Shown piece by piece: positions 8,415 to 52,487 of a stretch of DNA of 64,000 bases. The notes beneath the pieces are model-generated. The model saw nothing but the letters and a program-made list of their open reading frames with translations. It had not been told where the DNA came from and made no database searches. A program made the translations under genes and the position numbers. Within the stretch, counting starts at the first letter, position 1. Every line of letters begins with the position of its first letter. The DNA comes from Candidatus Levyibacteriota bacterium (GTDB lineage Bacteria > Patescibacteriota > Microgenomatia > Levybacterales > UBA12049), in NCBI GenBank assembly GCA_016199085.1, contig JACQHJ010000009.1, positions 41,667-105,666 on the forward strand, in the 5' to 3' direction.

Positions 8415-10403
8415 TTATCTAAGATGCAAATTCAGTGTTTTATCGGCGGAGAGTTTAAATTCTTCAAGTTTTTGGCCACTAACATTTATTAAATATTCAT
8501 TCGCATTTGTTCCAGGCTGTTTCTGAATCATTAAAGGAAGAACGGAATTGTTCGCAAGCTTAAACGGAAGAGTATAGGTGAGAGTAATCTTGGCAACGCC
8601 TTGAGGCCGAACGGTTACAAAGCCCTCAAAGACTGTTTTATCAAGCTCGTCATATGTCTTCATTTTTACCTCAGAACCCTGACTTGAGACAAGCTTACTT
8701 CCTTTTGGAACATAGACCCTAAACCAATCTCGCAAAACCGCATTTAGACAAAGATTGCCTCTTTCAAGATTACAGTCTGAAGGCGCAAAGGGATTTTTGT
8801 AGTTTACGGTTACGGTTTTTGTGATTAACCCATCTGACCCTACGTTATAGTCTGAGGTTACAGCCTCTGAGACAAACATGTTGGATTTTGCGCCGCCAAG
8901 ATTTGCCTCGTTAATGTGAAGATAATCTCCGTCAAAGGCCATGATTCTTCCTGCAGCATTTAAGCCCTCAAGCCCTTCCTGGGCCTGGGCATTATTCATT
9001 TTAAAAAGAATGTGTTTTTCTGAGATTTGGGTAAGCATTGCCTGGAAAAGCGGTCCCCAATAGAGTTTTGGGGAAGATGAAAAAGCTTTTTGCATAATCG
9101 CATACATCAAATCTCCGATTATTCCTTTTCTGTTGGCTATGATTTTATTTGTAGGCTGATCTGCATAAACCTCGAGATTATAGATTACCTGCGGACAATC
9201 GCATCTTGGATCAATCTTTGTGTTCCATGTAGTTCCGCCCAAATCTATATCTCCTAGGATATCCATCGCTGCAACCATGGCCTGAGTATCAACTGCGATT
9301 ACTCCGTCCACGTCTTGAGATCTGGGTGATTTTTCATAAAGCTTGAAAAATTCATCCATAGAGACTTTAAAATCAGGCGAGAGATTACTGTCTCGAAGGT
9401 TTAGATTGTTAACCTCAAGATATTGTCTTATTACATCCGGCGCTTTCGCCTTGCCGGAAATTGTGTCGTCAAGATTATAAATGTTATCCGAGGCATCAAC
9501 GTGAACTACTCCGCTATCTAGTCTGAAATATGAGTAAGCGGTAATAAATCCTCCCGTAGGTCTTAACTCTTTATCGTTTTGGAAAATGATCAGGTATTTT
9601 TTCTCATCCGGCTCTCCAAGTAAAACAGGCAACATTTTAATAAGTGGCCTTGAACTGTTGATTAAAGTTACGCTTTGATCTGTAAGAGTTCTTAGGTTTT
9701 CCAACCCGCTTCTAATTTTCTTTCCTGGACCTATTGGCGGATAATGACCGGGTTCTACCTGATCAATTTCAGTCCTTATCAAGGATAGTTTATCCGCAAT
9801 ATCATCAATCTTTGGGGTAATTTTACTCATGGTTTTAACAGCTGTTTCAATTCTTTGCTGGGCACTTCCTCCGACAAAACTCCCTTGTCCTTTAAGGCCT
9901 AGCAGATCAGCATACGGCTTTATCGAATCGATGAGGATCCCTGCCGCATCCAAACCTTCAAAACCCGCATTCACAAGATGGTCTGCGTCGTTATAATACC
10001 AGCTGGCAATTGGAACAAATTTGAGATATCCCATTGAATGGAGGTTTTTCTGTACGTCTACCAAACCGTCTTTTGTTTTGGCAAGTTCCACTGCGGCAAG
10101 CTCAACGTTTTGTTTTTTAATAGCGTCAGCCGTAACTTTGGCCTGTGCATAAGTTACTTTTACCGACTGGTATGTCTTTAAGGCAGGAATAATTATAGCT
10201 ACGACCGAAAGGACGACCAATAAGACAACAACTGCCAGGGACACCTGAAACTTTCTGTTTCTAATAAGTTTTCTCATCTTTTCCTTAAATTGAGGAAATT
10301 TTGAATTTGAAAAGGATTGCGGAGTGGAAGTCTTGATATCGGAAGCTACAGGCTTGGGGGTATCAAAATTAATCTTAGATATGTTATCCATACACAATAT
10401 CAT
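8415..10403 (-). CDS. Membrane-anchored DUF4012-like protein
   Basis: 662 aa; one TM helix near the N-terminus; segment YLIIFQNDKELRPTGGFITAYSYF resembles the conserved core I associate with DUF4012; the family assignment is from memory, not a search. Confidence 0.4.
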   Translation of the reverse strand: MILCMDNISKINFDTPKPVASDIKTSTPQSFSNSKFPQFKEKMRKLIRNRKFQVSLAVVVLLVVLSVVAIIIPALKTYQSVKVTYAQAKVTADAIKKQNVELAAVELAKTKDGLVDVQKNLHSMGYLKFVPIASWYYNDADHLVNAGFEGLDAAGILIDSIKPYADLLGLKGQGSFVGGSAQQRIETAVKTMSKITPKIDDIADKLSLIRTEIDQVEPGHYPPIGPGKKIRSGLENLRTLTDQSVTLINSSRPLIKMLPVLLGEPDEKKYLIIFQNDKELRPTGGFITAYSYFRLDSGVVHVDASDNIYNLDDTISGKAKAPDVIRQYLEVNNLNLRDSNLSPDFKVSMDEFFKLYEKSPRSQDVDGVIAVDTQAMVAAMDILGDIDLGGTTWNTKIDPRCDCPQVIYNLEVYADQPTNKIIANRKGIIGDLMYAIMQKAFSSSPKLYWGPLFQAMLTQISEKHILFKMNNAQAQEGLEGLNAAGRIMAFDGDYLHINEANLGGAKSNMFVSEAVTSDYNVGSDGLITKTVTVNYKNPFAPSDCNLERGNLCLNAVLRDWFRVYVPKGSKLVSSQGSEVKMKTYDELDKTVFEGFVTVRPQGVAKITLTYTLPFKLANNSVLPLMIQKQPGTNANEYLINVSGQKLEEFKLSADKTLNLHLR

Positions 10404-17403: not shown

Positions 17404-20400
17404 TCAATTAGGCGAAACTACTGGCTGTTTTTCTGGATAGCGGTCTATCTCCCTAAGGCTTCCGTCCTCGTTAAAGACAAATACCCTGTTGGTAAGCGAC
17501 AATCCTGCGCTTTGCAAAGCTGTGTCTACGTTTGGATGAAGGTATACTTTAGCATCCTTGTTTTGGAAAGCAAACCAGACGGCGTCCGAAATACCAACGG
17601 GAAATACCCAAGCGTCACCAACCCTAAGCGGCACATCTACGAAATGAAATTGCACTTCTCCCTTAGACCAGTAATCCGTGTAGAGTGCGTCGATTGAGAT
17701 GAAAAATTTTCTTGCCTTCTCTCCTGCCCCGCTCCAGTCAAAGTATGACTGCTGGATTTGGATTATTTGGAAAAGGGAAAAAACAATTATAATAACCGAG
17801 ACAGCTAAAAGCGCAACTTGCCTGCCTTCTTTTAAGAGAAATTCATAAAGCTTGTTAAGTAGGAATACAAAGATCAAAATTAAACCTAAAGATGCCAAAT
17901 AACTGTATCTTGATGTGATATTGCCAAGACCAAGATAGGGTAAAAGGGAAATAACAAAAAAGAGTCCTCCAAAGACAACTATCTTTCCATCGTTACTATT
18001 AAAAATCTTAATTTTCTTTTTAAATCCGTAGACTAAGGCTGCTAAAGCTACAACTCCAAGTACCACCGGAATTGCCAGATTTGCCCTAAGCACTGCTCTG
18101 AGCGTCTCGTACAAAGGAAGCGCGCTTTGCCCAACTAAAACGAGTGAAACATAACCGAGTAGGTTTCCGGCGAAGTTGAAGGGAAGCATGACAAAATCAT
18201 AGCTATAATCTCCGCTTAGCCAATGACTTTGGGAGACAAAACGAAGTAAAAGATAAATTACAACCGGTACAAAAAGCAACAAATAATCTTTTCTTTTTAC
18301 AACTTCTCTTAAAAAGGACAAAATACCCTCCTTTGCTTTATAGGCAATTATTAGAAGCGGTATTACAATCCCCATCTCGTGAAACATTAGACCTAAAGAA
18401 AGAGAGATTACTGAAAGAATATACAGATACACTTTCTTTTTTTCATCCCACTGTATAAACAGTAGAAGCGATAAAAGAGCAAAAAAGGCTGTAAAAAGAT
18501 GGCCTACCGATGATATCCAAAAGACTGCTTCTGTATAGCCGCTTAAGATTAAAAATAAGAAGGCAGACAAAACAGCAAGTAATTTGCTTTTAAAGACTCT
18601 TTTTGAAAGAAGATAGAAAAGAAAAGAAACACCAAAATGAAGAAACAGTGAAACCGCATGATAGACGGCCTGATTTAACCAAAATACTGATTCCATAACG
18701 TAAAAATAGACTTTTGTTCCGGGCCTAAAGAAGAATCCGTTTGATTGAGTAAAGAAACTTATTATCCTATCAAGGGGAGAACAGTTATTTGTACAGTCAG
18801 CCGCCCACCTAAGCCACGTATAATCGTCTCCCACGAAAAAGTTTGCAAGCATTGGTGAAAATAATAAAACGGCAAATAAAAGAAGATAAACAGCAATAGC
18901 AATATTTGAAGTAGCAACTTTTTTAAGTTCGGCAAATAAATTAACAGATGTTTTTTGATATAACATTAAAATCGCAAGCGTTACGCCGACCAGCATCCAG
19001 AGCACAAAAGCAATCTTTGACGCCTCAAATACATCTATTAAGGTCGCATTTAGAAAAAGCCCTACAGCGCCCCCCACAAATCCCAATACAAAACTTTTCG
19101 CAAGAGGAGATTCAATATCGGCAAATCCTTTCTTTATGTAAATTGCCAGGGATGTAAAAATTGAGAAAAAGGCTATAAAACCAAGTAAACCAATTTCTCC
19201 TAATATTCTTAGGTAATTATTATCAACCGCCAAACTGACAGATCCATAACCACTTCCAATTAGTATGTTTCTGCCAAAGGCGGTAAGAGCCCTTGGCCAT
19301 TCACCCTGGAAACGCGTCGTAAATGAAAGATCATAGGCTGCCGCCCTTTTAACTACGAAATCCCCATGCAGTACAAGTACCTGCGCAGAAAAAGTCGCCT
19401 TAATATCCGGCGGAAGTTCATAATAAAAATTACCAAGTCTTCTTATAACAGGCGAGAGCGCAAGATTTATGTATCCTGTTCCCTGAGGAAGGCTTTCTCC
19501 GGTAGACACATTTGTAGCAAGTACCAGAGGAACTTCTTGCGGTATGAATTCAAAAGGAAGAAGCGCCGAAGCAGAGGACTTCAAAGTTTCCGCATTACCT
19601 GAAATTGCGCCTATTAGCTCTTCTTTGTCTTTGACTCTTTTTTGCAAAACTATTTTATCTTTAAAATAATCCTTTTGAACAAACCTCACGTGGCCAACGG
19701 AATCACCGGTTTTTGCATCAATCACAACATCCACTTCAGAGATGGTACTTTTGAATCGGTCTAAAAGAGACGGCTGGAATGTAATTACCAAAAGTGCAAA
19801 AACAAAAAGCAAAGGAACCGTTAAGAACACAAGTTTTTTCTTTTGAAAAAAGAGGACAATCAAAAGTGAGACGAAAAGCACAAAAAACGAAACTCTTGAG
19901 ACAGTCATATTAAGAAGAATTAATCCTAAAAAGGCAGTTGTTAAAAGGAATATTTTTATAATCCAGTTTTTGAATCCAAAGAAAAGGCTAACGACTATAG
20001 GAATAATTAAGACAAGATAGGCTGCCAGATCATAATGACCGGCAAACGTAGAAGAAACTCTTGAAAGAGAAGAAAGCGTAATGGGAATTCCTTTTGCAAA
20101 TTCTTCGTTCATTGTTAAGTACGCCGGAAGTCCCAGATATTTTTGGCCAAAACCATATCCGATTACAGAAAGTAACGTAAAGACTAAAACTGCAATAATT
20201 ATAGGAAGAAATCTTTTATCCTTCATTCCCTGATAAGCAATAAAAAACAAGCTCATGTATTCGATATGCCTAACCAAGGAGAGAAAGGCGACGTTGGGGA
20301 AGACATTGGCAATGGTTGGAAAAATAAGCAAAACTCCGTGCATTGTCGCTATTGCACCTATTATCCAAAACGTGATTATAGGAATCGTCAATGGAGTTTT

Positions 20401-20601
20401 TAGAGTGATCTTTTGCTTAAGTAACAGAAAAATCCAGGAAAGTAAAACAAAAAAGACGACAAAATCTTCTCCCCTTACGTATACCCAGGTATTTTTAATA
20501 TCAAGGATTGGAATTTTGGGAAAAAGGGGAATGAAGGCAATTAAAAATAATGTCTCCAAAAATAAAATATTATCCCAAATCCATGAAATTATTTTTTTCA
20601 T
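17404..20601 (-). CDS. Fusion protein: O-antigen ligase/polymerase-like (Wzy_C) domain plus GT-C (ArnT/PMT_2-like) glycosyltransferase domain
   Basis: 1065 aa; N-terminal half is polytopic with NNYLRILGEIGLLGFIAFFSIFTSLAIYI (Wzy_C / O-antigen ligase signature); second polytopic half starts with FVGDDYTWLRWA (acidic DD/DE first-loop motif of GT-C enzymes) and ends in a soluble domain. Confidence 0.55.
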   Translation of the reverse strand: MKKIISWIWDNILFLETLFLIAFIPLFPKIPILDIKNTWVYVRGEDFVVFFVLLSWIFLLLKQKITLKTPLTIPIITFWIIGAIATMHGVLLIFPTIANVFPNVAFLSLVRHIEYMSLFFIAYQGMKDKRFLPIIIAVLVFTLLSVIGYGFGQKYLGLPAYLTMNEEFAKGIPITLSSLSRVSSTFAGHYDLAAYLVLIIPIVVSLFFGFKNWIIKIFLLTTAFLGLILLNMTVSRVSFFVLFVSLLIVLFFQKKKLVFLTVPLLFVFALLVITFQPSLLDRFKSTISEVDVVIDAKTGDSVGHVRFVQKDYFKDKIVLQKRVKDKEELIGAISGNAETLKSSASALLPFEFIPQEVPLVLATNVSTGESLPQGTGYINLALSPVIRRLGNFYYELPPDIKATFSAQVLVLHGDFVVKRAAAYDLSFTTRFQGEWPRALTAFGRNILIGSGYGSVSLAVDNNYLRILGEIGLLGFIAFFSIFTSLAIYIKKGFADIESPLAKSFVLGFVGGAVGLFLNATLIDVFEASKIAFVLWMLVGVTLAILMLYQKTSVNLFAELKKVATSNIAIAVYLLLFAVLLFSPMLANFFVGDDYTWLRWAADCTNNCSPLDRIISFFTQSNGFFFRPGTKVYFYVMESVFWLNQAVYHAVSLFLHFGVSFLFYLLSKRVFKSKLLAVLSAFLFLILSGYTEAVFWISSVGHLFTAFFALLSLLLFIQWDEKKKVYLYILSVISLSLGLMFHEMGIVIPLLIIAYKAKEGILSFLREVVKRKDYLLLFVPVVIYLLLRFVSQSHWLSGDYSYDFVMLPFNFAGNLLGYVSLVLVGQSALPLYETLRAVLRANLAIPVVLGVVALAALVYGFKKKIKIFNSNDGKIVVFGGLFFVISLLPYLGLGNITSRYSYLASLGLILIFVFLLNKLYEFLLKEGRQVALLAVSVIIIVFSLFQIIQIQQSYFDWSGAGEKARKFFISIDALYTDYWSKGEVQFHFVDVPLRVGDAWVFPVGISDAVWFAFQNKDAKVYLHPNVDTALQSAGLSLTNRVFVFNEDGSLREIDRYPEKQPVVSPN

Positions 20602-20607
20602 AAGGCT

Positions 20608-21171
20608 CTACCTAAACCATGCTGCGCGACCTAATTTATATGTGGGGTTTTTGTTTGCCCTCTCCCCTATCTCCTTTGCAGGAACTCCTCCAACGATCTT
20701 AAATTCTTCAACGTCTTTTGTAACTACTGCTCCTGCTCCAACAACAGCACCTTTTTTAATTGTAACTCCGGGAAGTATTATTGCTCTTGGTCCGACAAAG
20801 ACGTAGTCTTCAATAACTACGGGTTTTTTAATAACGTTTTCTACTCCTGCAAAATTTTCTTCAGCCGTATCATGTTGTGAGTTATAAATCATGACCTCGC
20901 TTGCAATATCGACGTGATTCCCTATTATCAATTTATCTCTTCCGTCTAAAACCGCATTTTCGCCGATTATTGAATCGCTTCCAATTGAAATATTGGGAGG
21001 GTAATAAAATACAGCTCCCATGTGAATTGTCGAGCCGCTTCCAATTTTAATTCCCCACAATCTGTAAAAAAATCGTCTTATGTGATGCGACGGGATGTAA
21101 CCGGCCAATCTAAGCTTTGCGACAACAAATTCCCAAAAAACTGTTTTTAGCCTTCTATAAATTCTTTTCAT
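20608..21171 (-). CDS. Hexapeptide-repeat (left-handed beta-helix) sugar O-acetyltransferase
   Basis: 187 aa; repeated [LIV]-G-x-x-x-x hexapeptides (IGSDSIIGENAVLDGRDKLIIGNHVDIASEV...IEDYVFVGPRAIILPGVTIKKGAVVGAGAVV), WbbJ/WcaF/maltose acetyltransferase-like. Confidence 0.75.
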   Translation of the reverse strand: MKRIYRRLKTVFWEFVVAKLRLAGYIPSHHIRRFFYRLWGIKIGSGSTIHMGAVFYYPPNISIGSDSIIGENAVLDGRDKLIIGNHVDIASEVMIYNSQHDTAEENFAGVENVIKKPVVIEDYVFVGPRAIILPGVTIKKGAVVGAGAVVTKDVEEFKIVGGVPAKEIGERANKNPTYKLGRAAWFR

Positions 21172-22277
21172 TTATTACTTGCCAATTCTTCTAAAACCTT
21201 AAGTGTTTCTTTGGCTGTTTTCTCCCAGGAAAACTTCTTTATTTGATTATAGCCTTTTTCTATCATCTCTTGCCTAAGACTTGGGTTCTTTATTACTTTT
21301 TCAATTTTTTCCTTGATGTCATCACTATTGTTAGGGTCAAAATAGATTGCCGCGTCTCCCCCTGCTTCGGGAAGGCTTGAGACGTTACTTGTCAGTACCG
21401 GACATCCGTGCTTCATTGCTTCCAAAACCGGCAAACCAAATCCTTCATATAATGAAGGCAAAACAAAACAGAGAGCGTTTTTGTAAAGTGAGGGAAGATC
21501 GTCATCTTCAACAAAATCTAGGAATTTAACTCTTTCTCCAACACCAAGTCTGCCAGGCGCAGATAATATATCTTCGTAAAGCCATCCTTTTTTACCGACA
21601 ACAACGAGTATTAAATTCTCCTTCTCAATTTTAGAAAACGCTTCTATAAGCTTTACGATGTTTTTTCTAGGCTGCAGAGTTCCTACAAAAAGGATATAGT
21701 TTTTATCAATTCCGAATTTTTTCCTTAAATCATCCATTGATAATATTCTAACACTAGTTGGCTTTTTTATTCCAGGATAAGTAACAACTATTTTTCCCTC
21801 GTCAACGCCGTATACATCGATTATATCACTCTTACTAAACTGGCTAATCGTAAAAATTTTGCTTGCATTTTTAACAGAATATTTCGTCCAATTAGTAAGC
21901 TGGTAGAGATCTTTTTTGGCAAAAAGGATTGGGAAATGAATAAATGAAAGGTCCATTATCGAAATTACTGTTGGTATTGGAGAAAACCTTGGTGCGTAAT
22001 GAGTCGGAGTGAAAAATATATCAGGTCGCTTGCCTAGAAAAAGGTTTAAAGGAAGACCAAATTGAGTCCACATTTTCTTTGGACCAACTGTGCGATACCT
22101 GAGGTTTGAGTTTGGGGGAGGCATTTCACTTCGTGGGTTTTCTTTTAAGAATATTTCAAATTTAACTTTTCGCTCATCTTGAATTTTAGCAAACTCCAAT
22201 AAAAGTTCGTATGCGTATTCACCTATTCCCACCTTTTTTTCTACATTTGCTTCATTTCCGTCAATTCCTATTACCAT
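21168..22277 (-). CDS. Glycosyltransferase family 4
   Basis: 369 aa; MVIGIDGNEANVEKKVGIGEY N-terminus; C-terminal EGFGLPVLEAMKHGCPVL E-x7-E motif. Confidence 0.75.
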   Translation of the reverse strand: MVIGIDGNEANVEKKVGIGEYAYELLLEFAKIQDERKVKFEIFLKENPRSEMPPPNSNLRYRTVGPKKMWTQFGLPLNLFLGKRPDIFFTPTHYAPRFSPIPTVISIMDLSFIHFPILFAKKDLYQLTNWTKYSVKNASKIFTISQFSKSDIIDVYGVDEGKIVVTYPGIKKPTSVRILSMDDLRKKFGIDKNYILFVGTLQPRKNIVKLIEAFSKIEKENLILVVVGKKGWLYEDILSAPGRLGVGERVKFLDFVEDDDLPSLYKNALCFVLPSLYEGFGLPVLEAMKHGCPVLTSNVSSLPEAGGDAAIYFDPNNSDDIKEKIEKVIKNPSLRQEMIEKGYNQIKKFSWEKTAKETLKVLEELASNK

Positions 22278-22281
22278 ATTT

Positions 22282-23256
22282 TTATTTTATCCTATACATT
22301 GCCCCTCTGGTAGTTCCAAGTTTTATTATATATCCTTCTTTTTCAAGTTTTTTTAAATCATATCTAATCATACGACTTGAGACCTTATAAAATCTTCTGC
22401 TAATAAAATCCAGGGAAACAACTTCATGATCCCTTATAATATCTAGTATCTCTTTTCTTCTCGGAAGTAGCAAATCTTCCCTTTTGTATTCCTTAACGCT
22501 TAACTCTTCTAAGGTTTTTTGAATCTGGGCCTCAAGTAATTCAAGCATGAATTCAATAAATGAAGTTGTGTCACTCTTATCCAAATAGGCGTAGTACTCT
22601 TCTTTTCTTTCATTGAGAATTTCCTCTATGGAAATAAGACCGTTAAATGAATATCCGCTTTTAAGTAAAATTGCCTGGAGTAAAAGCCTACCAACTCTTC
22701 CATTTCCATCTAAGAAAGGATGAATTTTCTCAAAAGAAATGTGGGATGCAAATGCTTTAATAAGAGCATTCTCGCTGTCTTTTTGATTAATGTAGACAAT
22801 CAATTGCAAAAGTAACTCGGAAAGTTTTGATGGAGGAGGAGGAATATATACCGGAAAACCTGATTGGTTATATATGGCACTAGGCTCCCTTCTTGTCATG
22901 CCTAAACTATCAGTTAGGCTTTTCATAACAATTCTATGGAGATCTAGGATAAAATCTATATCAATATTGTCTTTTTTTCCCTGGATAAAGGAAAAAGCGG
23001 ATAAAATATTCTCAATCTCAATCCTTTCTCTAAACTTCGGATTAAACCTGTTCAAATTATCTATATCAGACAGTTCAAGACTATTACCTTCTATTTTTGC
23101 GGAAAACAATGAACTCTTTAAAAGGGATTTTCTCTGTAGGTTAACTCTTAAGTTTTCGGGGATTTGTATTTTCTCAAGAGCTGCTCTTTTAACTTCAATG
23201 CTGGCTATGAGCCTTAGTATATCCTGAGTTAAGTCATACTTAAGTGGAATTTCCAT
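22282..23256 (-). CDS. Class II Fic family protein (putative AMPylator) with C-terminal winged-helix DNA-binding domain
   Basis: 324 aa; canonical Fic motif HPFLDGNGRVGR (HxFx[DE]GNGRxxR); upstream inhibitory-helix motif SAKIEG ([ST]xxxE[GN]); C-terminal ...RMIRYDLKKLEKEGYIIKLGTTRGAMYRIK looks like a wHTH. Confidence 0.85.
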   Translation of the reverse strand: MEIPLKYDLTQDILRLIASIEVKRAALEKIQIPENLRVNLQRKSLLKSSLFSAKIEGNSLELSDIDNLNRFNPKFRERIEIENILSAFSFIQGKKDNIDIDFILDLHRIVMKSLTDSLGMTRREPSAIYNQSGFPVYIPPPPSKLSELLLQLIVYINQKDSENALIKAFASHISFEKIHPFLDGNGRVGRLLLQAILLKSGYSFNGLISIEEILNERKEEYYAYLDKSDTTSFIEFMLELLEAQIQKTLEELSVKEYKREDLLLPRRKEILDIIRDHEVVSLDFISRRFYKVSSRMIRYDLKKLEKEGYIIKLGTTRGAMYRIK

Positions 23257-23300
23257 ATCTTACCAAATATTACCAGATATTTCCGAATATTTCCAGATTA
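23251..23300 (+). repeat. Five tandem 10-bp units (consensus T[TA]CC[AG]NATAT) spanning the Fic start codon and 5' region
   Basis: ttccatatct / taccaaatat / taccagatat / ttccgaatat / ttccagatta read directly from 23251-23300; one-helical-turn periodicity. Confidence 0.5.
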
Positions 23301-23315
23301 AGCATATTGAGGCTA

Positions 23316-23879
23316 TTATACTCCTACGTTTATCACTTCGAGTTTTTTCTCATTAATACCCAGTATTTCAATTGCATCTTTTTTAGTAGCTTCCGAAATA
23401 CAAAGTATTCTATCCGTTTCTTTTCTTACCCACTTTAGTTTTCTCTTTTGCGATGAAACGATATTTGGAGAAATAATGAACCTAAAAGGATTAAAGCTCG
23501 TTTGATTATGAGATTCTTCGGGATACTTATACACTATTAAATCATAAAGTATTGTTACCTTTTTGGCATGTTTAGTTGGAGGCTCTGTCCAATCCGAAGA
23601 AATATATATATCTACGTTTCCAATAAAATTTTCAATTGGAAATACGTGCAACCTATTCCACATAATATCCAAGATGGTTGGGGGAATTTTAAATTTCTTA
23701 ATTGATACGTTTGGATTTTCTATATTTAACTCTGGGAGTTTGCCCCTTAGTGAGGAGTAAAAAAGAATATACTGATTCTTTTTATCAATTTCAAATAGAT
23801 AGGAAAGCAAACTTTTTAAATAATTAGAAACTCCTGTGTTTTTGTAAGTTAGTTGAGAAATATCAATTCCTATTATCAT
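23316..23879 (-). pseudogene. Truncated GT4 glycosyltransferase (N-terminal half only; C-terminal E-x7-E Rossmann domain missing)
   Basis: 187 aa; MIIGIDISQLTYKNTGVSNY matches the N-terminus of the two intact paralogs at 13232..14353 and 21168..22277 (MxIGIDG...TG[IV]G.Y), but the ORF stops at ...KLEVINVGV where those continue for about 180 more residues; the Fic gene starts 60 nt downstream. Confidence 0.55.
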
Positions 23880-23899
23880 GCGCTTTAATTATATTAGTT

Positions 23900-23928
23900 T
23901 GATAAAGCTATATCAATTAGGTATAATT
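23900..23928 (+). promoter_or_regulatory. Near-consensus sigma70 promoter TTGATA-17-TATAAT, predicted to give a leaderless mRNA for the 23936 ORF
   Basis: TTGATA at 23900-23905, 17-bp spacer, TATAAT at 23923-23928; the ATG at 23936 is 8 nt after the -10 and has no Shine-Dalgarno sequence. Confidence 0.55.
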
Positions 23929-23935
23929 CGAGCTT

Positions 23936-24886
23936 ATGAATATTAGAGAAAGAAGCACAGGGAGCGAAGGAGGCGTGGCTACGCCACGAATCGATGTAGA
24001 TGCTTTCATCGCAAAGTACGGGGTAGATAACGAATTAACTAGGGAAGTTTTACATGAATTTCCCACATTATGTTATTTATTGGGAAATACAACTGATACA
24101 CCTCAAGCCATGGACTCAAGACCAGACGGAGTTGCGAGGCGTATATTTTTCCTTACAGAAGGCTCTGGCATGTTCGGCCTTAGTCAACCTGAGGACGCAA
24201 TGAGATGGAGAGGAATTTTTAATCATGTTATGGGAACAACCCGTCAAGTTTACTATTTAGGCCAAAGACTGATGGAAATTGGCGAAGGCGGTAGAGCTGA
24301 ACTTGGTAGTCATGGTTTCGATGCTGGAACTTTTGATGAGATAGATCCTGAACTTATGCGAAGATTCTTCCTTGTTTCTCACGCAGGGCGAAGAAGAGCT
24401 GATGAGCGTGCATGGCATGGTCTTAATGACGGTGTACACATAGAAGATGATATTGGAGAAGCCTCACTTGAATTCTTAACATCCCAAGACGCAGAACAGG
24501 GAATTATCGATTTGATGAGGGTTGAAGCTCACTCAGATCTTCTTGATACCGCTATGACCTTAGGATATTTCCCAAACATTGTAGATAACGTTCTTACCTA
24601 TACCGATTGGACATATGGTCAACGACCTCAAACACTACAGTCTCGATTTGAAGGATTACGAAAAAGCCAAAGACAGCCAGTAGAAGTATTGGATGCACTT
24701 GAGAGAGCGGGAAATCACTTTGAACAGGCTATCGTTTCCGTTTTGGGAATAGATACGCCTACAAGAATGGCGAATGCCTCTTATGATTGGGAGGAAAGAA
24801 TTAGAAGAGCTTATTGTGCCCCCTCAGGCATTTCTATTGCCCACGCATTCCCTGATTATAGCGCTCAGTTTGGAATTACAGCTTAA
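23936..24886 (+). CDS. Hypothetical protein with N-terminal nucleotidyltransferase-like GS-x9-DxD signature
   Basis: 316 aa; residues 9-22 GSEGGVATPRIDVD fit the Pol-beta-superfamily NTase pattern hG[GS]-x9-13-Dh[DE]h, but no hydrophobic strand precedes it; GC about 43-52% versus about 28-32% in flanking glycan genes; driven by the canonical promoter above. Confidence 0.45.
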   Translation: MNIRERSTGSEGGVATPRIDVDAFIAKYGVDNELTREVLHEFPTLCYLLGNTTDTPQAMDSRPDGVARRIFFLTEGSGMFGLSQPEDAMRWRGIFNHVMGTTRQVYYLGQRLMEIGEGGRAELGSHGFDAGTFDEIDPELMRRFFLVSHAGRRRADERAWHGLNDGVHIEDDIGEASLEFLTSQDAEQGIIDLMRVEAHSDLLDTAMTLGYFPNIVDNVLTYTDWTYGQRPQTLQSRFEGLRKSQRQPVEVLDALERAGNHFEQAIVSVLGIDTPTRMANASYDWEERIRRAYCAPSGISIAHAFPDYSAQFGITA

Positions 24887-24891
24887 TCTAC

Positions 24892-25539
24892 CTATCTTCC
24901 TACAGGGAAAGTAAACAGAGGCTTTGGACAAGTACCATATGGCGCAAATGGAGCTAAGGCTATTGCACTAGGGCTAAATTGAATGGGTTCTTGCGGCAGG
25001 ATCTCTATTGCTTCCCTTGCTAGTTTACGATCTTGCAAATAACCTAGTGTGACGTGTGGAGTATAGTCCTCTCCTACAAAAATCTGACCCCATCTTCTAA
25101 CGTTTGCCTTTAATCGTGGACTAAGTCCCCTTAGTCTTGCCACAACGTCACTTACGTGTCCTTCTCTTTGCTCATTTAGTGCTGCAAATACCGTATCGTG
25201 TAAATTTTGGATTGCCCTATCTTTTACCACATTAAAGAAAAGAAATCCCGAAAATTCTGAATATCCTTCCAGGATAACATCCATTCCTTCTAGGGATCCT
25301 GCAATATTTCTTACTGTTTCCTCAACCTTATCTTGGTTTCGTAAGGGATATCTTGCGGGGTATAAAGATAAATGAGGAAGATGGAATTCTCTATCTAAAG
25401 TAAAAGCGGTTGGGAAATGTTTTCCCAATAACGTACTTAGGGCAATAAGCTTATCTGTCGTCACTTCATCGGGAAGTAAAACAACGTTAAGATCAACAGT
25501 TGGCTCTTTTCCTTCCTTTTCTCTATCTTTTGTGCTCAT
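24892..25539 (-). CDS. 2H phosphoesterase superfamily protein (LigT / 2'-5' RNA ligase / cyclic phosphodiesterase-like)
   Basis: 215 aa; two H-x-[ST]-x-hydrophobic motifs (HLPHLSLY and HVTLGYL) spaced about 110 residues apart as in LigT/ThpR-type enzymes; convergent with the previous ORF, 5-nt gap. Confidence 0.55.
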   Translation of the reverse strand: MSTKDREKEGKEPTVDLNVVLLPDEVTTDKLIALSTLLGKHFPTAFTLDREFHLPHLSLYPARYPLRNQDKVEETVRNIAGSLEGMDVILEGYSEFSGFLFFNVVKDRAIQNLHDTVFAALNEQREGHVSDVVARLRGLSPRLKANVRRWGQIFVGEDYTPHVTLGYLQDRKLAREAIEILPQEPIQFSPSAIALAPFAPYGTCPKPLFTFPVGR

Positions 25540-25639
25540 AATTAAAAAGTTCTTGTATTCTTATATAACTCATCATTTTTGTTGGCTTCAGAAAGGGATT
25601 CTATCAACAAATTAGACTTGAATGCAAGTAAGATAATGA

Positions 25640-26533
25640 TCAGAACCTTTTTAATACGCTTTTAGGATTGTCCGGATTGTCAAGATATCGTATATAAAGA
25701 ACTAACTCATCTAATATTCCCCATTTCTGCTTCTTTCTCTTTTCTACAAAACTGTCTCTGTCTATTTCTTCATTTTCTTTTTGTATCTTCGGGTAGATAA
25801 AAGGAACCTTGACTACTTTAACTTTTAAACCTAAACGTAAAGCTTTTACTATTGCAAACATTTGCGAATTTGAAAAATCATCGGGTGAGACATATTTTCC
25901 TACCCCACTAGCATATGGTGTCTTTAATCTTAATTCATATCTTTCTAAAAACAACTTTATTATCTCTGGATCGTTTTTACAAACAGTGGGGCCAAAAAAA
26001 ATGTCCAGCTCCTCTTCTTGGGGTAAAAGCTCAAATTCATGTAAAATATCGTTATATTTTTTGTTTGCGTCCATTTCTGACTCATACATATAATCTGGGT
26101 AGCTGGAAGAAAAAAGATCCCGCTGTCTTTTAGGAACAATTATGTCCGCCTCACCCCTAAGAATTGGTTCAACTAACTGGGGGGTACAATCATCAACTAA
26201 TGAGACTTTTTCTGGTTCTGTTCTTACTATAACTTTGGCTTGGGGAATCTGTGAAGAATATTCAATAAGCTGTCTTCTGGCAGCTGCCCTACTTTTTCCA
26301 CTTCTTTCCAAAACAATTATTCCGCGTTTAGCCAACTCCTCTTTAAATTCGCTAGAGCTTTCTCCATCATTTATTACAACTGCGTAGCCATGTTTTATTG
26401 CCGCATCTATGCTTTGGATGGCTAAATCTCCTCTTACTTTATCAGTATTAGATAAATCCAAAGACTCTCCCTTATACCAATTGGGATATTTTGTTGTAGC
26501 AGCGATAACAATTGATCTTGGGTCAAGCTTCAT
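25640..26533 (-). CDS. Hypothetical protein, possibly GT-A-like (function unknown)
   Basis: Long ORF 25640..26587 (315 aa); internal Met at 26533 (MKLDPRSIVIAATTKYPNWY...) avoids a 65-nt overlap with the upstream gene; no diagnostic motif; VVINDGESSS is only loosely DXD/DGS-like. Confidence 0.35.
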   Translation of the reverse strand: MKLDPRSIVIAATTKYPNWYKGESLDLSNTDKVRGDLAIQSIDAAIKHGYAVVINDGESSSEFKEELAKRGIIVLERSGKSRAAARRQLIEYSSQIPQAKVIVRTEPEKVSLVDDCTPQLVEPILRGEADIIVPKRQRDLFSSSYPDYMYESEMDANKKYNDILHEFELLPQEEELDIFFGPTVCKNDPEIIKLFLERYELRLKTPYASGVGKYVSPDDFSNSQMFAIVKALRLGLKVKVVKVPFIYPKIQKENEEIDRDSFVEKRKKQKWGILDELVLYIRYLDNPDNPKSVLKRF

Positions 26534-26771
26534 TTCTTTTATTGGAGTTACTTTTGGCACTTTTATACTTAGCCAAATTAAAAACAATACTTAGAAAAAT
26601 AAAGGCAACCGCATAATAAACTAGGTGTTGTGCCGTAAAGAAAATCTGAAGATAAAATAAAGGAATTGATAACACCAGTGCTCCTAATCCAAAGATTAAG
26701 CTTAGCTTGCTATTTCTTTTATAAATTAAAAAAGTAAGTACTAATAAAAACAAAACGTCCTGTATCTTCAC
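26523..26771 (-). CDS. Small membrane protein (2-3 TM) downstream of the GtrB-like GT2
   Basis: 82 aa, predicted TM helices; overlaps the stop of the GT2 gene by 4 nt (translational coupling). Confidence 0.4.
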   Translation of the reverse strand: MKIQDVLFLLVLTFLIYKRNSKLSLIFGLGALVLSIPLFYLQIFFTAQHLVYYAVAFIFLSIVFNLAKYKSAKSNSNKRNEA

Positions 26772-27715: not shown

Positions 27716-29731
27716 TCATTTTTTAACCCTTGATCCAATCAATAAGTATAAAAGTATTAGGATTAATGTTATTGATCCCAACATTACCCCAACCATTACA
27801 TAGATTTGAGGACCATAATACAAATCAATAGTATAATTACCTTCTTTCTGCAGAATAAAACTATTAAAGACTTTATCGTAAGGCTCTGAAGGCAGAATAG
27901 TCTTTGAATTGCCAGGTTCTTTAAGTATCCAATTCTTATCGTATTTTTCAGAAAAAACAAGTCTGTCATTGATTTTTACATTTTCCAAGTAAAGTTTGTA
28001 GCTAACAGGGCTTATTCTTTCATATTTGACTAAAGACTTCCCTGAGGTCGTCCAGAAATGATCTTTATAGTTTTCTATTTCAAAGACATAAATCTTCCCA
28101 ATCTGTTTTACGTTTTTTAGCCAAGAGACAGACTTTAGCTGCTTAAGCGTAAATAGATAAAGATCATTGTTATATTTCCTGTCTTTTAAAAATATTTCTC
28201 CCTGGCTATCGTATGGAATGATTACATATTTTACAGACGAGTTGATTAAGATTCTCTGCGTTTCCTCTTGCTTAAATTTTTCAACTAATAATTTATTATC
28301 AACCTCTTTTAAGAATTCTCTTGCGGGTAGCGCTGGGTGTAAATTACTGAAGGGGGCAAATCTTTGTGCCATGGGAAACCATAATACTCTATAAAAGTTT
28401 TCGTCTAAAGAAAGATATTTTTCAAGCTGCGTGTAGTCACTGGGAATAGTTGTTGATTTAAAAGCTCCAGACAACTTACCAAATATTGCTGGGTCTATCA
28501 AAAACAATAAATAAACTAAAACTGCCAGTAAAAATATATTTTTGGATGAGAAATTAAATAATGAGGGTCTTTTAAACTTACTCAAATACTCATATATCTT
28601 TCCGATTGAAAAAGGAATTAAGATGCTATATGAAATTGCGATCAAAAGATACCACTTTGTTGGATCCCTAAACATAATAAAGCCGGGAATATGATCAAAT
28701 AGCCAAATATATATAAAACCAAAAGGATCGTTAGCTCCCTTTGCCAAAAATGCTCCTAAAAGTCCTAAAATCGCAAAAAACAATATATTTTTTTTAATTC
28801 TTTCCTCTTCGTTCTTAATAAAAAATAAACTCGAGTAAGCAAGGATTGGAACAATCAAAAACTCAGGTCTCATAAACGAAACTTTACCAAAAAGGTTCTC
28901 AGGCCAATTTGGATGAAGAAGGGAAATGGTGTTTTCAAACGTTGCAAAACTAAAAAATTTCACAGCACCAAAAGATGTATATATTTGTCCTAAGTCGTAT
29001 AAAGGATTTACGCGTAGGATTAGAGTTGGAATTATCCAGTATGAATTTAGAAGAAAAGCTATAAAAAAAGGAATACCTAGGGAGTAAACTATTCTAAATA
29101 GGAATTTTTTAGAAAAATCAATATTAAATAGAAGATAAAACAGAAAAACAAAAACAGTAACATAGGCAATCCTTAGATCAAGCATCACCTGTAACGATAA
29201 AACCAGTCCTATCAAAAAAGAGAATAATAATTTTTTCTGATTAAACGAAACTAAAAACAAATAAAATACTAAAGGAGCGATTGCATAGGCAAGAGAGATA
29301 AAGATTTGGCCTCCGCCAATAAGCATCAATACATAAGTATTTAAAGAGAATATTAGGGTTGAGATAAAAGCAAATTTTGATGAAGGAAAAAACTTTTTAA
29401 AAAATAAAATTGGTATAACTATTAAAGCTAATAAAAGCGGGTAAAAATAAAATACTCTCTCAGCAAGCAACCAGTTTAATGAGAAAAATCTTGCAAACAA
29501 TAAGGGAATAGCCTCAATGAAATGAAGCCAGGAAAAAGGCGATACAAAAGCTCCCAAACCTCCTACCGCAAGATTCCATCCCCATGCATAAGGCATTAAT
29601 GAAATGTCTTGTAATCTAGACGTTGATATAAAAGAAAAGTCACCTGAAGAGATTACATGGGGGTAAAACCAATTCTTAAAAACTACAATAAAGAGTAATA
29701 AAATAAAATAAAAGTTTTTTTTAAAAAACAT
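27716..29731 (-). CDS. Large polytopic membrane protein, probable GT-C glycosyltransferase (YfhO/ArnT-like) with C-terminal soluble domain
   Basis: 671 aa; about 14 predicted TM helices in the first 470 residues then a hydrophilic 200-aa tail ending in a TM; no catalytic motif identified. Confidence 0.45.
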   Translation of the reverse strand: MFFKKNFYFILLLFIVVFKNWFYPHVISSGDFSFISTSRLQDISLMPYAWGWNLAVGGLGAFVSPFSWLHFIEAIPLLFARFFSLNWLLAERVFYFYPLLLALIVIPILFFKKFFPSSKFAFISTLIFSLNTYVLMLIGGGQIFISLAYAIAPLVFYLFLVSFNQKKLLFSFLIGLVLSLQVMLDLRIAYVTVFVFLFYLLFNIDFSKKFLFRIVYSLGIPFFIAFLLNSYWIIPTLILRVNPLYDLGQIYTSFGAVKFFSFATFENTISLLHPNWPENLFGKVSFMRPEFLIVPILAYSSLFFIKNEEERIKKNILFFAILGLLGAFLAKGANDPFGFIYIWLFDHIPGFIMFRDPTKWYLLIAISYSILIPFSIGKIYEYLSKFKRPSLFNFSSKNIFLLAVLVYLLFLIDPAIFGKLSGAFKSTTIPSDYTQLEKYLSLDENFYRVLWFPMAQRFAPFSNLHPALPAREFLKEVDNKLLVEKFKQEETQRILINSSVKYVIIPYDSQGEIFLKDRKYNNDLYLFTLKQLKSVSWLKNVKQIGKIYVFEIENYKDHFWTTSGKSLVKYERISPVSYKLYLENVKINDRLVFSEKYDKNWILKEPGNSKTILPSEPYDKVFNSFILQKEGNYTIDLYYGPQIYVMVGVMLGSITLILILLYLLIGSRVKK

Positions 29732-33540: not shown

Positions 33541-34586
33541 TAAGCATTAAGTAAGCTATTAAGATAAGAAATTCTTTTGTGCATCTTAGCATAATTGGGA
33601 ATATTTGTATTTGCGATCATTCTAAAGAATATATGTTTTCTTATAAAAGCAAGTATTAATTTTGGCGCAAGCAATGAAAAGAAAAACCAAAACCAGTATT
33701 CAAATGAAAATCTTAATTTTGGCGAAATCTCTAGGACTCTTTTAGAAAAAATTTTAAGATTAGAATTATTTGTATAATATTTTGCTGCAGGAAATTCTCT
33801 TATAATTATTTTTAGCCTCTTATTTAAAAACTGTTCATATTCATTTCCTCCTAGTAGTCGGCTGACTTCTGTAAAATATTTTTCAAATCTAAACTGTCCA
33901 TTACTTAGTTGATATCTTGGATGAGAAGCGTTTTGCGACCAGGATGCTGCAAGGAATTGTTGTTGAACAAAATATCCCCCAAACTGATAGATGTTATAAA
34001 AAATAATCTTAAACCAGGCTACGAATTCCGAATTCATTAGGTCAATTTTTTTAGGATAGTTATTTTTAAATACTATTCCCGTAATAAAGAAAGGGTCAAT
34101 TTTTTCAATAAAGTCTACAATAATCTTTTTATTTTCTTTGGGTTTGATTTTAAAATCTCTTTGAATATCCTTATGAAAATCAAATATTAAATCTTTCTCT
34201 TGTAAAACACTTAAATAGTTCATCCTGACGAAGCCATAACTCTCTTTTTTGATAAGAGCGTAAAGACGGCTTAACGTTTGGGGAAAAATAATGAAGTCAT
34301 CATCACCATGTAGCAATATATAGGTACCGCTTGCCGCATTGATAGCTTTTCGCAAATTCGGAATCCACCCAATGTTTTTTACATTCTTTGAGTATTTAAT
34401 TCTTGGATCTTTAAATTTCCTTACAATATCCTCTGTCCCGTCATTAGAATTATTGTCAGAAATTATTATCTCAAAATCAGAAAAATCCTGCATTAATATA
34501 CATTGAATAGCAAGTTTTAAATTATTTGCTCTTTTGTATGTAGGAATTAATATAGAAAAAAAAGGATTTTTAATCATTTTTAACAT
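33540..34586 (-). CDS. Glycosyltransferase family 2
   Basis: 348 aa; FSILIPTYKRANNL...IIISDNNSNDGTEDIV...LLHGDDDFII (GT2 D/DXD motifs). Confidence 0.75.
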   Translation of the reverse strand: MLKMIKNPFFSILIPTYKRANNLKLAIQCILMQDFSDFEIIISDNNSNDGTEDIVRKFKDPRIKYSKNVKNIGWIPNLRKAINAASGTYILLHGDDDFIIFPQTLSRLYALIKKESYGFVRMNYLSVLQEKDLIFDFHKDIQRDFKIKPKENKKIIVDFIEKIDPFFITGIVFKNNYPKKIDLMNSEFVAWFKIIFYNIYQFGGYFVQQQFLAASWSQNASHPRYQLSNGQFRFEKYFTEVSRLLGGNEYEQFLNKRLKIIIREFPAAKYYTNNSNLKIFSKRVLEISPKLRFSFEYWFWFFFSLLAPKLILAFIRKHIFFRMIANTNIPNYAKMHKRISYLNSLLNA

Positions 34587-35493
34587 AACGAAGGATAGTG
34601 TTTACAACTGAATCAATGGAAAGATTGTTTGCCTCTCTCATAAATTCCTGATTCCCTATAACTTTGGTAAACCTATCCTGTACGCCTAATCTTTTAAATT
34701 TAATACTGAAACTATTTTCTGCTAATACTTCAGATACTGCACTTCCCAATCCGCCGATTATTGAATGTTCTTCTAATGAAAATATAGCTCTTGTTTTTTT
34801 TGCACTATCTATAACAATATTGGAATCAAATGGCTTTATCGTATGCATACTCACTACTCGAACGCTGAATCCTTTTTTAGCAAGTATTTTTGAAACCTCG
34901 AAAGCTCTATATAACATAGTGCTCGTAGCAATTATTGTTAAATCTTTACCATCCGTAATTATTGCTCCTTTTCCCACCTCAAGCTTTGACTTTGTATTAT
35001 GAATAACTGGCTCCCCTGCTTTTCCTAGTCGTATATAAACTGGGCCTTTTATTTTTAGCGCTTGCCTTGTTACAAATTCTACCTCTTTCGGATCACCCGG
35101 GCAAAAAATTGTTAGATTAGCAAGAGTTCTTAAAACTCCTATATCTTCCAATCCGTGGTGCGTATGGCCGTAAGGTCCGTAAGAAAATCCTGCTCCTACC
35201 CCAACGATTTTGACATTTAAATTCTGGTAGCAAATATCATTTCTTATTTGCTCAAAATTTCGCATTGTTACAAAAGGGACAATTGAGTAAATAAAAGGAG
35301 TTTTTCCTTCCGTGGCAAGACCAGCTGCCAAACCTGTCATATTCTGCTCGGCAACTCCAGCATTAAGATATTGTCTGGGAAATTTCTCAATATATTTTTC
35401 AAATACAGAAAATCCTAAATCCCCCGTAATAAGCATTATGTCTTTATTATTTTGTGCTAGTTGATAAAGGGTATTTAAGAATGTTGTTCTCAC
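34570..35493 (-). CDS. Transketolase, C-terminal (pyrimidine-binding / Tkt-C) subunit
   Basis: 307 aa; ...NAGVAEQNMTGLAAGLATEGKTPFIYSIVPFV...GPYGHTHHGLEDIGVLRTLANLTIFCPGD typical of split transketolase B subunit. Confidence 0.8.
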   Translation of the reverse strand: MRTTFLNTLYQLAQNNKDIMLITGDLGFSVFEKYIEKFPRQYLNAGVAEQNMTGLAAGLATEGKTPFIYSIVPFVTMRNFEQIRNDICYQNLNVKIVGVGAGFSYGPYGHTHHGLEDIGVLRTLANLTIFCPGDPKEVEFVTRQALKIKGPVYIRLGKAGEPVIHNTKSKLEVGKGAIITDGKDLTIIATSTMLYRAFEVSKILAKKGFSVRVVSMHTIKPFDSNIVIDSAKKTRAIFSLEEHSIIGGLGSAVSEVLAENSFSIKFKRLGVQDRFTKVIGNQEFMREANNLSIDSVVNTILRYVKND

Positions 35494-36320
35494 TTTAAGC
35501 TTAACCTCCTTATCGCCTCATCAGCCTCTTCTTGCGTAGGTGATTTATATTGAGACGATATTTTATTTACATAAATAGGAACTCCACCCAATCCTTTAAT
35601 TGTATGAGCAATAATAACCGTTGGTTTATTTTTCTTTATAGAAATTTTTTTAAATGCAGTAATCAATTCATTAAAGTTGTGCCCATCTACCTCAACTACC
35701 TCCCAACCAAAACTTCCCCATTTTTTTGAAAATGGTTCTAGGTTCAAAACATCCTTTGTATGCCCAAATCCTTGAAGCTTATTATAATCAACTATTGCAA
35801 CAAGGTTATCAAGCTTATGATGCCCAGCAAATAATATTGCTTCCCAAGTTGATCCCTCGTCACATTCACCATCTGAAATAATACAGAAAATTCTATGTTT
35901 CTTACTGTCTATTTTGCCTGCATATGCCATGCCCATTGCCATTGATAAGCCATGGCCTAAAGAACCCGCCGAGACTTCCACTCCTGAAACACAATGTCTA
36001 GTAGAATGCCCAGGAAGCTTACCGTTATTACTTTCGTATCCTTCTAAAAATTTTTTATCGAAAAAGCCACGCTCTGCCAATACAGCGTATAGCGCTTTTG
36101 CGTCATGGGCTTTACTAAAAACTAATCTGTCACGTTCCTTGCCATAGGGGTTTTGCGGGTTAATATTCATTATCTCAAAATAGAGAGAAACTAAAATCTC
36201 AACACAAGAAAGTGCACCGCCAGTATGGGCACTTTTGGCTCTCAGGCTCATTTCGATGATGTCTTTTCTAATTTTTTTAGCTTGATTTTTAAGAAAATCT
36301 ATTCTCTTTGTACTAAGCAT
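35490..36320 (-). CDS. Transketolase, N-terminal (TPP-binding) subunit
   Basis: 276 aa; AHTGGALSCVEIL...GSLGHGLSMAMGMAYA...GDGECDEGSTWEAILFAGHHKLDNL (TPP-binding GDG...E...N-type region); ATGA overlap with the C-terminal subunit gene. Confidence 0.8.
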   Translation of the reverse strand: MLSTKRIDFLKNQAKKIRKDIIEMSLRAKSAHTGGALSCVEILVSLYFEIMNINPQNPYGKERDRLVFSKAHDAKALYAVLAERGFFDKKFLEGYESNNGKLPGHSTRHCVSGVEVSAGSLGHGLSMAMGMAYAGKIDSKKHRIFCIISDGECDEGSTWEAILFAGHHKLDNLVAIVDYNKLQGFGHTKDVLNLEPFSKKWGSFGWEVVEVDGHNFNELITAFKKISIKKNKPTVIIAHTIKGLGGVPIYVNKISSQYKSPTQEEADEAIRRLSLK

Positions 36321-50085: not shown

Positions 50086-50087
50086 AT

Positions 50088-51620: not shown

Positions 51621-51628
51621 TATATAAA

Positions 51629-52486: not shown

Positions 52487-52487
52487 T

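Follow-up and report, generated by a model that had tools for sequence, protein, structure and literature searches.

The block at 22.3-25.5 kb of a 64,000-nucleotide (nt) stretch of a Candidatus Levybacteria contig (Patescibacteria/candidate phyla radiation, CPR), referred to here as the window, brings together a Fic protein, the N-terminal half of a GT4-type glycosyltransferase (GT4N), a plus-strand open reading frame (ORF3) and a 2H-superfamily phosphoesterase (2H) among glycan genes. This block is probably a patchwork of independent units, comprising an ancestral core, a Fic insertion and a 2H insertion, and not one module. The original prediction had grouped Fic, ORF3 and 2H into an integrated non-glycan module; Fic and 2H are indeed non-glycan additions, but ORF3 is associated with glycan genes and the three genes do not travel together.

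The features concerned are as follows, with lengths in amino acids (aa):

21168..22277, minus strand: full-length GT4 glycosyltransferase, 369 aa (Pfam Glycos_transf_1, 6.4e-42, and Glyco_transf_4)
22282..23256, minus strand: SoFic-type class II Fic protein, 324 aa (Pfam Fic, 1.1e-18; PADLOC SoFic, 7.2e-49)
23249..23295, minus strand: 10-nt tandem repeat array of 4.7 copies, a candidate Fic operator (Tandem Repeats Finder, TRF)
23316..23879, minus strand: half-GT4 (GT4N), 187 aa (Glyco_transf_4 N-domain, 3.9e-06, below cutoff)
23888..23927, both strands: two overlapping divergent promoters (TTGATA-17-TATAAT each, 11/12)
23936..24886, plus strand: ORF3, 316 aa (Pfam-less family, predicted remote HD/HDOD-like fold)
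24892..25539, minus strand: 2H-superfamily phosphoesterase, 215 aa (PF13563, 6.3e-14; two HxS/T motifs)
25640..26587, minus strand: X315, a soluble GT-A glycosyltransferase-like protein

The ORF listing returned the four open reading frames of the block at the positions that the original prediction had given, and several of its identifications stand: a class II Fic protein with a winged helix-turn-helix (wHTH) domain, the N-terminal half of a GT4, a plus-strand frame on its own consensus promoter, and a convergent 2H phosphoesterase whose stop lies 5 nt from that of ORF3. X315 lies outside the span first described and is counted here as part of the core.

The patchwork reading is carried by comparison with related loci, numbered L001 onward. 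The window's gene order, GT2-X308-2H-ORF3 (opposite strand)-GT4N (187 aa)-Fic (324 aa)-GT4 followed by Hexapep, recurs in L014 (GCA_040960315.1), L017 and L019, with amino-acid identities to the window of 86-88% for Fic, 71-74% for 2H, 82-84% for ORF3, 79-80% for GT4N and 68-90% for the neighbours. L006 has Fic and lacks 2H, and L005 has neither, a 174-aa GT4N standing directly upstream of GT4. The distant loci L009/L026, L021, L029, L034 and L039 are likewise without Fic and 2H and keep both GT4N (177-181 aa) and ORF3. Among 32 non-redundant loci with ORF3, Fic is present in three and 2H in three, all within or beside the window's clade. All four deeper outgroups lack Fic, which is therefore derived under either of the branching orders considered below; 2H, absent from L005, L006 and L009, is a derived insertion confined to the window's sub-clade. 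Fic and 2H are derived, separately acquired additions that have since been inherited vertically under purifying selection, the ratio of nonsynonymous to synonymous substitution rates (dN/dS) being 0.05-0.22 for all genes compared, as measured against saturated synonymous divergence. The original prediction had itself named the finding that would tell against it, namely relatives with the same genes in the same place and an equally short GT4-like frame. That is what L014, L017 and L019 show among close relatives; at greater depth, only Fic and 2H are additions.

Composition gives no sign of a foreign origin. The GC content of ORF3 and 2H had been put at 43-52%; the measured values are 43.3% and 40.6%, respectively. 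At the third codon position (GC3) the two genes stand at 0.30 and 0.27, the level of their neighbours, and the excess is confined to codon positions 1 and 2; the raised GC therefore reflects amino-acid composition. Synonymous codon usage, the further check proposed for foreign origin, was scored for each gene against the pooled rest of the window (window standard deviation 1.5) and is native-like, with z of +0.80 for Fic, +0.35 for GT4N, -0.26 for ORF3, -0.20 for 2H and +1.0 for X315, none of them atypical. A foreign origin inferred from GC was accordingly rejected. A horizontally acquired island should stand out in composition or codon usage and be missing from close relatives; neither is seen here, the same arrangement being present in L014, L017 and L019. 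No tRNA that might mark an integration site was found, and terminator-like hairpins in the region show no excess (5 vs 3.2 in shuffles).

A single stress/defence or nucleotide-signalling module of Fic, ORF3 and 2H, acquired horizontally and inactivating a GT4 as it inserted, is thus highly improbable. The SoFic-type character of Fic and the absence of Fic and 2H from outgroup loci fit such a module, as do the AbiE toxin-antitoxin pairs of some relatives, since they show that the spot tolerates defence-type genes: ORF3 and GT4N have between them an AbiEii toxin gene, with a small partner upstream of it, in L001 (645-1486), L002 (488-1329) and L004 (311-1152). However, all 32 non-redundant loci have ORF3, in most cases with no Fic or 2H beside it, and one protein, P0063, joins it to a GT-A enzyme; in L006, Fic occurs and 2H is missing; GT4N is just as short, and under selection, in loci that lack Fic; ORF3 lacks a nucleotidyltransferase (NTase) signature; codon usage is native-like; and synteny contradicts a single foreign module. 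AbiEii also lies beside ORF3 in L047 (385-1056) and a few kb away in L029 (12259-13154), and the window has no AbiE-type pair. The junction between GT4N and GT4 holds other genes as well: a 129-aa frame in L029 (6818-7207) with the look of a 23S-rRNA intervening protein (IVP)-like four-helix bundle, a label given by eye from the sequence, with Pfam PF05635 recorded only for another gene, in L006; and a 534-aa multi-pass membrane protein in L021 (4805-6409). Given such varied inserts, the junctions around the GT4N-ORF3 pair are permissive landing sites.

The gene described as a reduced and inactivated GT4 is neither. GT4N consists of the Glyco_transf_4 N-domain alone (27.4 bits against a cutoff of 28.5), without the C-terminal Glycos_transf_1 donor-binding domain; its alignment with the neighbouring 369-aa GT4 spans residues 1-169 of that enzyme, and it stops where the neighbour's N-domain ends. 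It is 72% identical to a 191-aa orthologue in L001 with the same C-terminus, and every locus with a complete copy encodes 174-191 aa, whether or not Fic is there too (among Fic-less loci, 174 aa in L005, 177-178 aa in L009, L021 and L034, and 181 aa in L029). With a dN/dS of 0.05-0.16, GT4N shows none of the marks of a pseudogene or recent truncation, namely relaxed selection, length variation and a full-length orthologue. The proposal that the Fic insertion truncated a GT4 was rejected, as GT4N is equally short in Fic-less loci. GT4N is a conserved, maintained, stand-alone acceptor-side Rossmann-domain protein, ancestral to the locus and not a remnant. In Fic-less loci, 2-4 nt separate its stop from the start of GT4 (TAA-tt-ATG in L005, TAA-gatt-ATG in L009), a junction typical of translational coupling. 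The full-length GT4 would thus be the ancestral downstream partner with which GT4N acts, the two being coupled in translation in relatives that lack Fic.

The other face of GT4N adjoins ORF3. The plus-strand promoter of ORF3 (23899-23927) and the minus-strand promoter of GT4N (23916-23888) overlap face-to-face in a 56-nt spacer that is conserved in L005, L006, L014, L016 and L017, and not in L008 or L009. Each -10 element ends 7-8 nt before its ATG and no Shine-Dalgarno sequence is present; therefore, both transcripts are probably leaderless, and the two core genes would be transcribed divergently from these consensus promoters.

ORF3, which is 100% identical to the NCBI protein HY344_04750, is a member of a small, Patescibacteria-restricted, Pfam-less family and an ancestral core gene of the locus. 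An exhaustive HMMER search of 1.84 billion representative clusters gave 62 with the family, from Patescibacteria where the source is named. It had been described as NTase-like; no Pfam, NCBIfam or PADLOC match was obtained, and an NTase of the MNT/NTase_sub_bind type was rejected on this ground and on the predicted fold. An AlphaFold2 (AF2) model built from 41 sequences reached a predicted local distance difference test (pLDDT) score of 93.6, and a fold search pointed to a remote HD/HDOD-like fold; the sequence profile gave no link to a solved structure in the PDB. The conserved residues are H97, H149 (followed by A150, not Asp), R152, R153, E157, D224, R237 and R290, among which the RR pair (152-153), R237 and R290 suggest an anionic ligand.

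The gene company of ORF3 is more informative. In the 32 loci it usually lies amid glycan genes or phosphatases, and the genes within 4 kb include GT4N in 12 loci, X315, GT2 and GT4 in nine each, and an epimerase and PAP2 in five each, together with His_Phos_1 and NUDIX. For example, L048 has His_Phos_1 and NUDIX nearby (its ORF3 neighbours were considered as X315 or GT4N homologues and rejected as such). Fusions point the same way: P0063 (610 aa) joins an N-terminal X315-like GT-A domain (37% identity to X315, 1e-52) to ORF3, and P0036 (524 aa) joins ORF3 to His_Phos_1, while in P0076 (497 aa) and P0052 (505 aa) the ORF3 domain is preceded by about 190-215 aa of unannotated N-terminal sequence. 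These fusions and recurrent neighbours place ORF3 with sugar or lipid-phosphate genes, not in a defence module. X315 itself has no Pfam match and a weak match to AglJ (5e-05), and its GT-A fold is closest to DPMS, MpgS and GpgS. The products of GpgS and MpgS need a phosphatase. X315 is the inferred functional partner of ORF3, and the two may act together on a phosphorylated sugar or lipid intermediate. The X315 frame starts at a TTG (315 aa; 26560-26587 region); the NCBI protein has 306 aa and orthologues have 283-320 aa, and the true start probably lies downstream of the TTG.

Several of the records with an ORF3 homologue or a shared locus (L007, L008, L009, L011, L012 and L013) bear the title 'uncultured Gammaproteobacteria' or 'Chloroflexia'. 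The window locus is nevertheless shared, partly or for the most part, by L008 and L009, and L007, L011, L012 and L013 carry an ORF3 homologue, from a family whose other named sources are all Patescibacteria. The titles look like placeholder or mislabelled taxonomy.

Into this core, a single-gene cassette consisting of a repeat array and a Fic-wHTH gene would have entered exactly between the GT4N stop and the GT4 start. The Fic protein carries an inhibitory motif, SAKIEGN (residues 52-58), N-terminal to HPFLDGNGR in one chain, and is therefore class II under the definition that uses the inhibitory motif (S/T)xxxE(G/N) (PMC12249575). The inhibitory motif and the active site, HPF[L/S]DGNGR, are both invariant in five orthologues. 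Residues 266-312, at the C-terminus, match HTH_DeoR/HTH_11 in Pfam and form the wHTH. The PADLOC SoFic model covers residues 10-321 of 324, and matches to class II Fic proteins of known structure in the PDB include 4rgl (5.8e-24) and SoFic 3eqx (9e-12, 48 bits), with FICD and 3eqx at about 1e-11 to 1e-13. Judged from its sequence, this protein is SoFic-type by architecture and not a SoFic orthologue. Its dN/dS is about 0.10-0.12. A phage origin of Fic or 2H was rejected: IMG/VR scans gave no relatives, and tblastn against INPHARED with Fic returned matches of at most 36% identity over at most 67% of the protein. Class 2 "Sofic" proteins are single-protein anti-phage systems and toxic AMPylases (PMC12249575). 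By analogy with this family, the autoinhibited AMP-transferase of the window may, once derepressed, act as a toxin or abortive-infection effector.

The array in front of Fic has a period of 10 (CTGGWARTAT-like) and extends from 40 nt before the Fic start codon into the third codon. Its two-unit pattern is unique to this spot within the window, with three occurrences where 0.19 would be expected. Over 53 nt that include the array, the window, L014, L017 and L016 have the same sequence, as does L001 over the 41 nt that lie on its contig; the synonymous sites of the neighbouring Fic gene, by contrast, differ at 47-49% between the window and L014 or L017, and the spacer from the GT4N stop to the array varies. 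L006, whose Fic protein is 66% identical, keeps four CTGG(A/T)A(A/G)TAT units (9333-9372), and its wHTH is about 84% identical to that of the window by our own count. An RNA element in the Fic leader was rejected: there was no Rfam match in the window, and the leader with its array shows no unusual structure (fold z +0.40). The repeats, spaced one helical turn apart, are a putative operator of the Fic wHTH, which would most likely bind them and autoregulate, as family membership suggests. No description of an array of this kind for SoFic was met, although no literature search was aimed at it.

The second addition, 2H, is the last gene (3' end) of the minus-strand GT2-X315 unit and would have joined it later, in a narrower sub-clade. 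It scores 52.7 bits against PF13563 (2_5_RNA_ligase2; cutoff 27) and 28.4 bits (1.9e-06) against DUF1045, both above cutoffs. The two motifs of the superfamily, HLS (56-58) and HVT (162-164), are invariant in seven orthologues. The equivalog models are another matter, as 2H reaches 14 bits vs a cutoff of 65.7 for LigT/ThpR (TIGR02258) and 22.3 vs a cutoff of 248.95 for PhnPP (TIGR03223). There was no PADLOC match, no PDB relative by sequence and no viral relative in IMG/VR. The most likely activity would be that of a cyclic-phosphate or phosphoester hydrolase. A homologue search returned the protein itself and five homologues of 72-85% identity, and the two contexts that were looked up are the same locus; dN/dS is 0.16-0.21. 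In L006, X300 and ORF3 overlap convergently by 4 nt, which marks 2H and its spacer as a clean insertion. A promoter scan found no match in the 100-nt spacer between X315 and 2H. One metagenome contig, L003/L018 (1062-1644), has 2H in two pieces, of 150-160 aa and 50 aa, owing to either a frameshifted allele or an assembly error.

A rival reading has Fic, 2H or both drawn into the glycan pathway. Fic stands inside a transcription unit with its stop 4 nt from the GT4 start, and the repeats and wHTH are its best-conserved parts. The Fic-wHTH protein might thus be a repressor or roadblock on the repeats that controls the GT4 operon, or might AMPylate a pathway enzyme. By the same reasoning, 2H, inserted exactly between X315 and ORF3, might hydrolyse a phosphorylated or cyclic-phosphate product of these two, as His_Phos_1, PAP2 or NUDIX partners would elsewhere: ORF3 repeatedly adjoins or is fused with phosphatases (P0036; PAP2 in five loci; His_Phos_1 and NUDIX in L048), X315 resembles the GpgS/MpgS synthases, and the weak DUF1045 match leads to a family that includes the sugar cyclic-phosphate hydrolase PhnPP. 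Such recruitment is rather unlikely. The pathway runs without Fic and 2H in most relatives, 2H falls far short of the PhnPP model (22 bits vs a cutoff of 249), and no Fic or 2H enzyme is known to act in glycan assembly.

At the other extreme, both genes could be unrelated passengers, with Fic a selfish addiction-type toxin that has no defence role and 2H serving in general RNA-end healing or as a 2',3'-cyclic phosphodiesterase. Class II Fic-wHTH proteins are very common and mostly uncharacterised, and 2H, with no PADLOC match, fits best to the generic 2'-5' RNA ligase superfamily model. This is distinctly unlikely, as both genes are intact with dN/dS of 0.1-0.2 over saturated synonymous divergence, and the 2H homologue search returned only proteins of this sub-clade, at 72-85% identity, which would be odd for a housekeeping enzyme.

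A bolder scheme can also be drawn, though it is speculative and improbable. In it, Fic-wHTH has been domesticated as a switch in a surface-glycan operon, where the wHTH sits on the repeat array between formerly coupled glycosyltransferase genes, and its occupancy or AMPylation state gates GT4 and the downstream glycan genes. In parallel, ORF3 and X315, with an interchangeable 2H, His_Phos_1 or PAP2, would constitute an undescribed CPR-specific glycosyl-phosphate pathway. If this were true, the Fic switch would couple a toxin or abortive-infection enzyme to cell-surface structures recognised by phages or hosts.

Several points weigh against the patchwork reading and the roles given to its parts. 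The branching of the window clade, L005 and L006 is ambiguous, as identity matrices of GT4 and GT4N put L005 nearer and those of ORF3 and Hexapep put L006 nearer; Fic was therefore either acquired once L005 had branched off or lost a single time in L005, which leaves the number of gains uncertain. 2H is seen only in Fic-bearing genomes, a distribution that by itself would also fit a functional Fic-2H link. The NCBIfam SoFic equivalog (NF046030) scores the window Fic at 55.4 bits against a cutoff of 550, short of orthology, and binding of the repeats by the wHTH is an inference. The SoFic toxin of E. coli H397 is neutralised by AS1, a 47-aa protein encoded downstream of it (PMC12249575); downstream of the window Fic there is no room for an AS1-like antitoxin gene because the spacer to GT4 is 4 nt. 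For ORF3, the Foldseek results are not significant, the best meaningful matches again being HD proteins; none of 41 family members has a Pfam HD or HDOD match; and the H...HD...D metal-binding signature is absent, as the dyad is H-A and the Asp is missing. Finally, all compared loci are metagenome-derived, as metagenome-assembled genomes or metagenome contigs, and the whole analysis is computational.

The surroundings of the block are those first described, in part. From 8.4 to 64 kb, Pfam scans find mostly glycosyltransferase, nucleoside diphosphate (NDP)-sugar, flippase and large membrane-protein genes, including Bac_transf, NTP_transferase, many GT2/GT4, PMT_2, epimerases, DegT, methyltransferases, a Polysacc_synt flippase and unannotated large membrane proteins. 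The dominance of glycan genes therefore holds, but a single operon does not, because several plus-strand units (38.8-40.6, 41.6-42.3, 45.9-47.6 and 57.2-58.4 kb) break the region up. Elsewhere in the window, a DHQ-synthase-like cyclase, a transaldolase, an SDR, an HpcH-type aldolase, an acetolactate-synthase-like TPP enzyme and a split transketolase (48213-54317 and 34570-36320) hint at the synthesis of an unusual sugar of the branched, heptose or cyclitol type. Two unannotated large membrane proteins, at 17404-20601 and 27716-29731, diverge far less evenly than their neighbours: M1065 has 81% identity in L005 vs 38% in L006, and M671 has 76-79% in L001/L014 vs 48-49% in L005/L006. Such unevenness suggests that alleles have been replaced or that the glycan locus is a mosaic.

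The main value of these results is corrective. The arrangement that looked like a defence island beside a broken glycosyltransferase is in fact conserved, and the gene taken for broken encodes a maintained short protein. Two lessons follow for similar cases: codon position 3 should be checked before a foreign origin is read from raised GC, and a 'half' enzyme should be called inactivated only after its counterparts in relatives have been compared. Three modest positive leads are offered, namely the Patescibacteria-restricted, HD-like ORF3 family with its genetic links to phosphatases and a GT-A enzyme, the conserved GT4 N-domain protein that stands alone, and a SoFic-type Fic with a candidate operator.

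Each component belongs to a known kind, and the whole is an ordinary patchwork and not a new system. Split GT-B glycosyltransferases are represented by Alg14/Alg13 and by bacterial EpsE/EpsF-type pairs. As in such pairs, GT4N is a separate, conserved N-terminal Rossmann half that is tightly coupled to a glycosyltransferase gene; the difference is that its neighbour is a complete GT4 with its own N-domain and not a lone C-half (no C-half-only frame was seen in the window). X315 shares only 8-17% sequence identity with the soluble GT-A synthases GpgS, MpgS, MGS and DPMS. ORF3 departs from the HD/HDOD superfamily (PDB 3i7a, 3m1t, SadB and PgpH) in lacking a Pfam HD/HDOD match, in its H-A dyad and in an extra N-terminal helix/beta-hairpin subdomain. 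2H resembles its superfamily, which includes the LigT/ThpR 2',3'-cyclic phosphodiesterases and PhnPP/DUF1045, in its two HxS/T motifs and in superfamily profiles above cutoff, and differs from LigT and PhnPP themselves in failing their equivalog models and in having no PDB relative by sequence. The Fic protein shares with SoFic (S. oneidensis 3eqx and the E. coli anti-phage SoFic, PMC12249575) the inhibitory helix motif (S/T)xxxE(G/N), the HPFx(D/E)GN(G/K)R active site, the C-terminal wHTH and the single-gene layout. However, it is only remotely similar to known SoFic proteins (55 bits vs 550; 48 bits to 3eqx) and, unlike the E. coli system, has no small AS1-like downstream gene beside it. It is further set apart from known SoFic proteins by its place between two glycosyltransferase genes of a CPR bacterium, with a 10-nt array in front.

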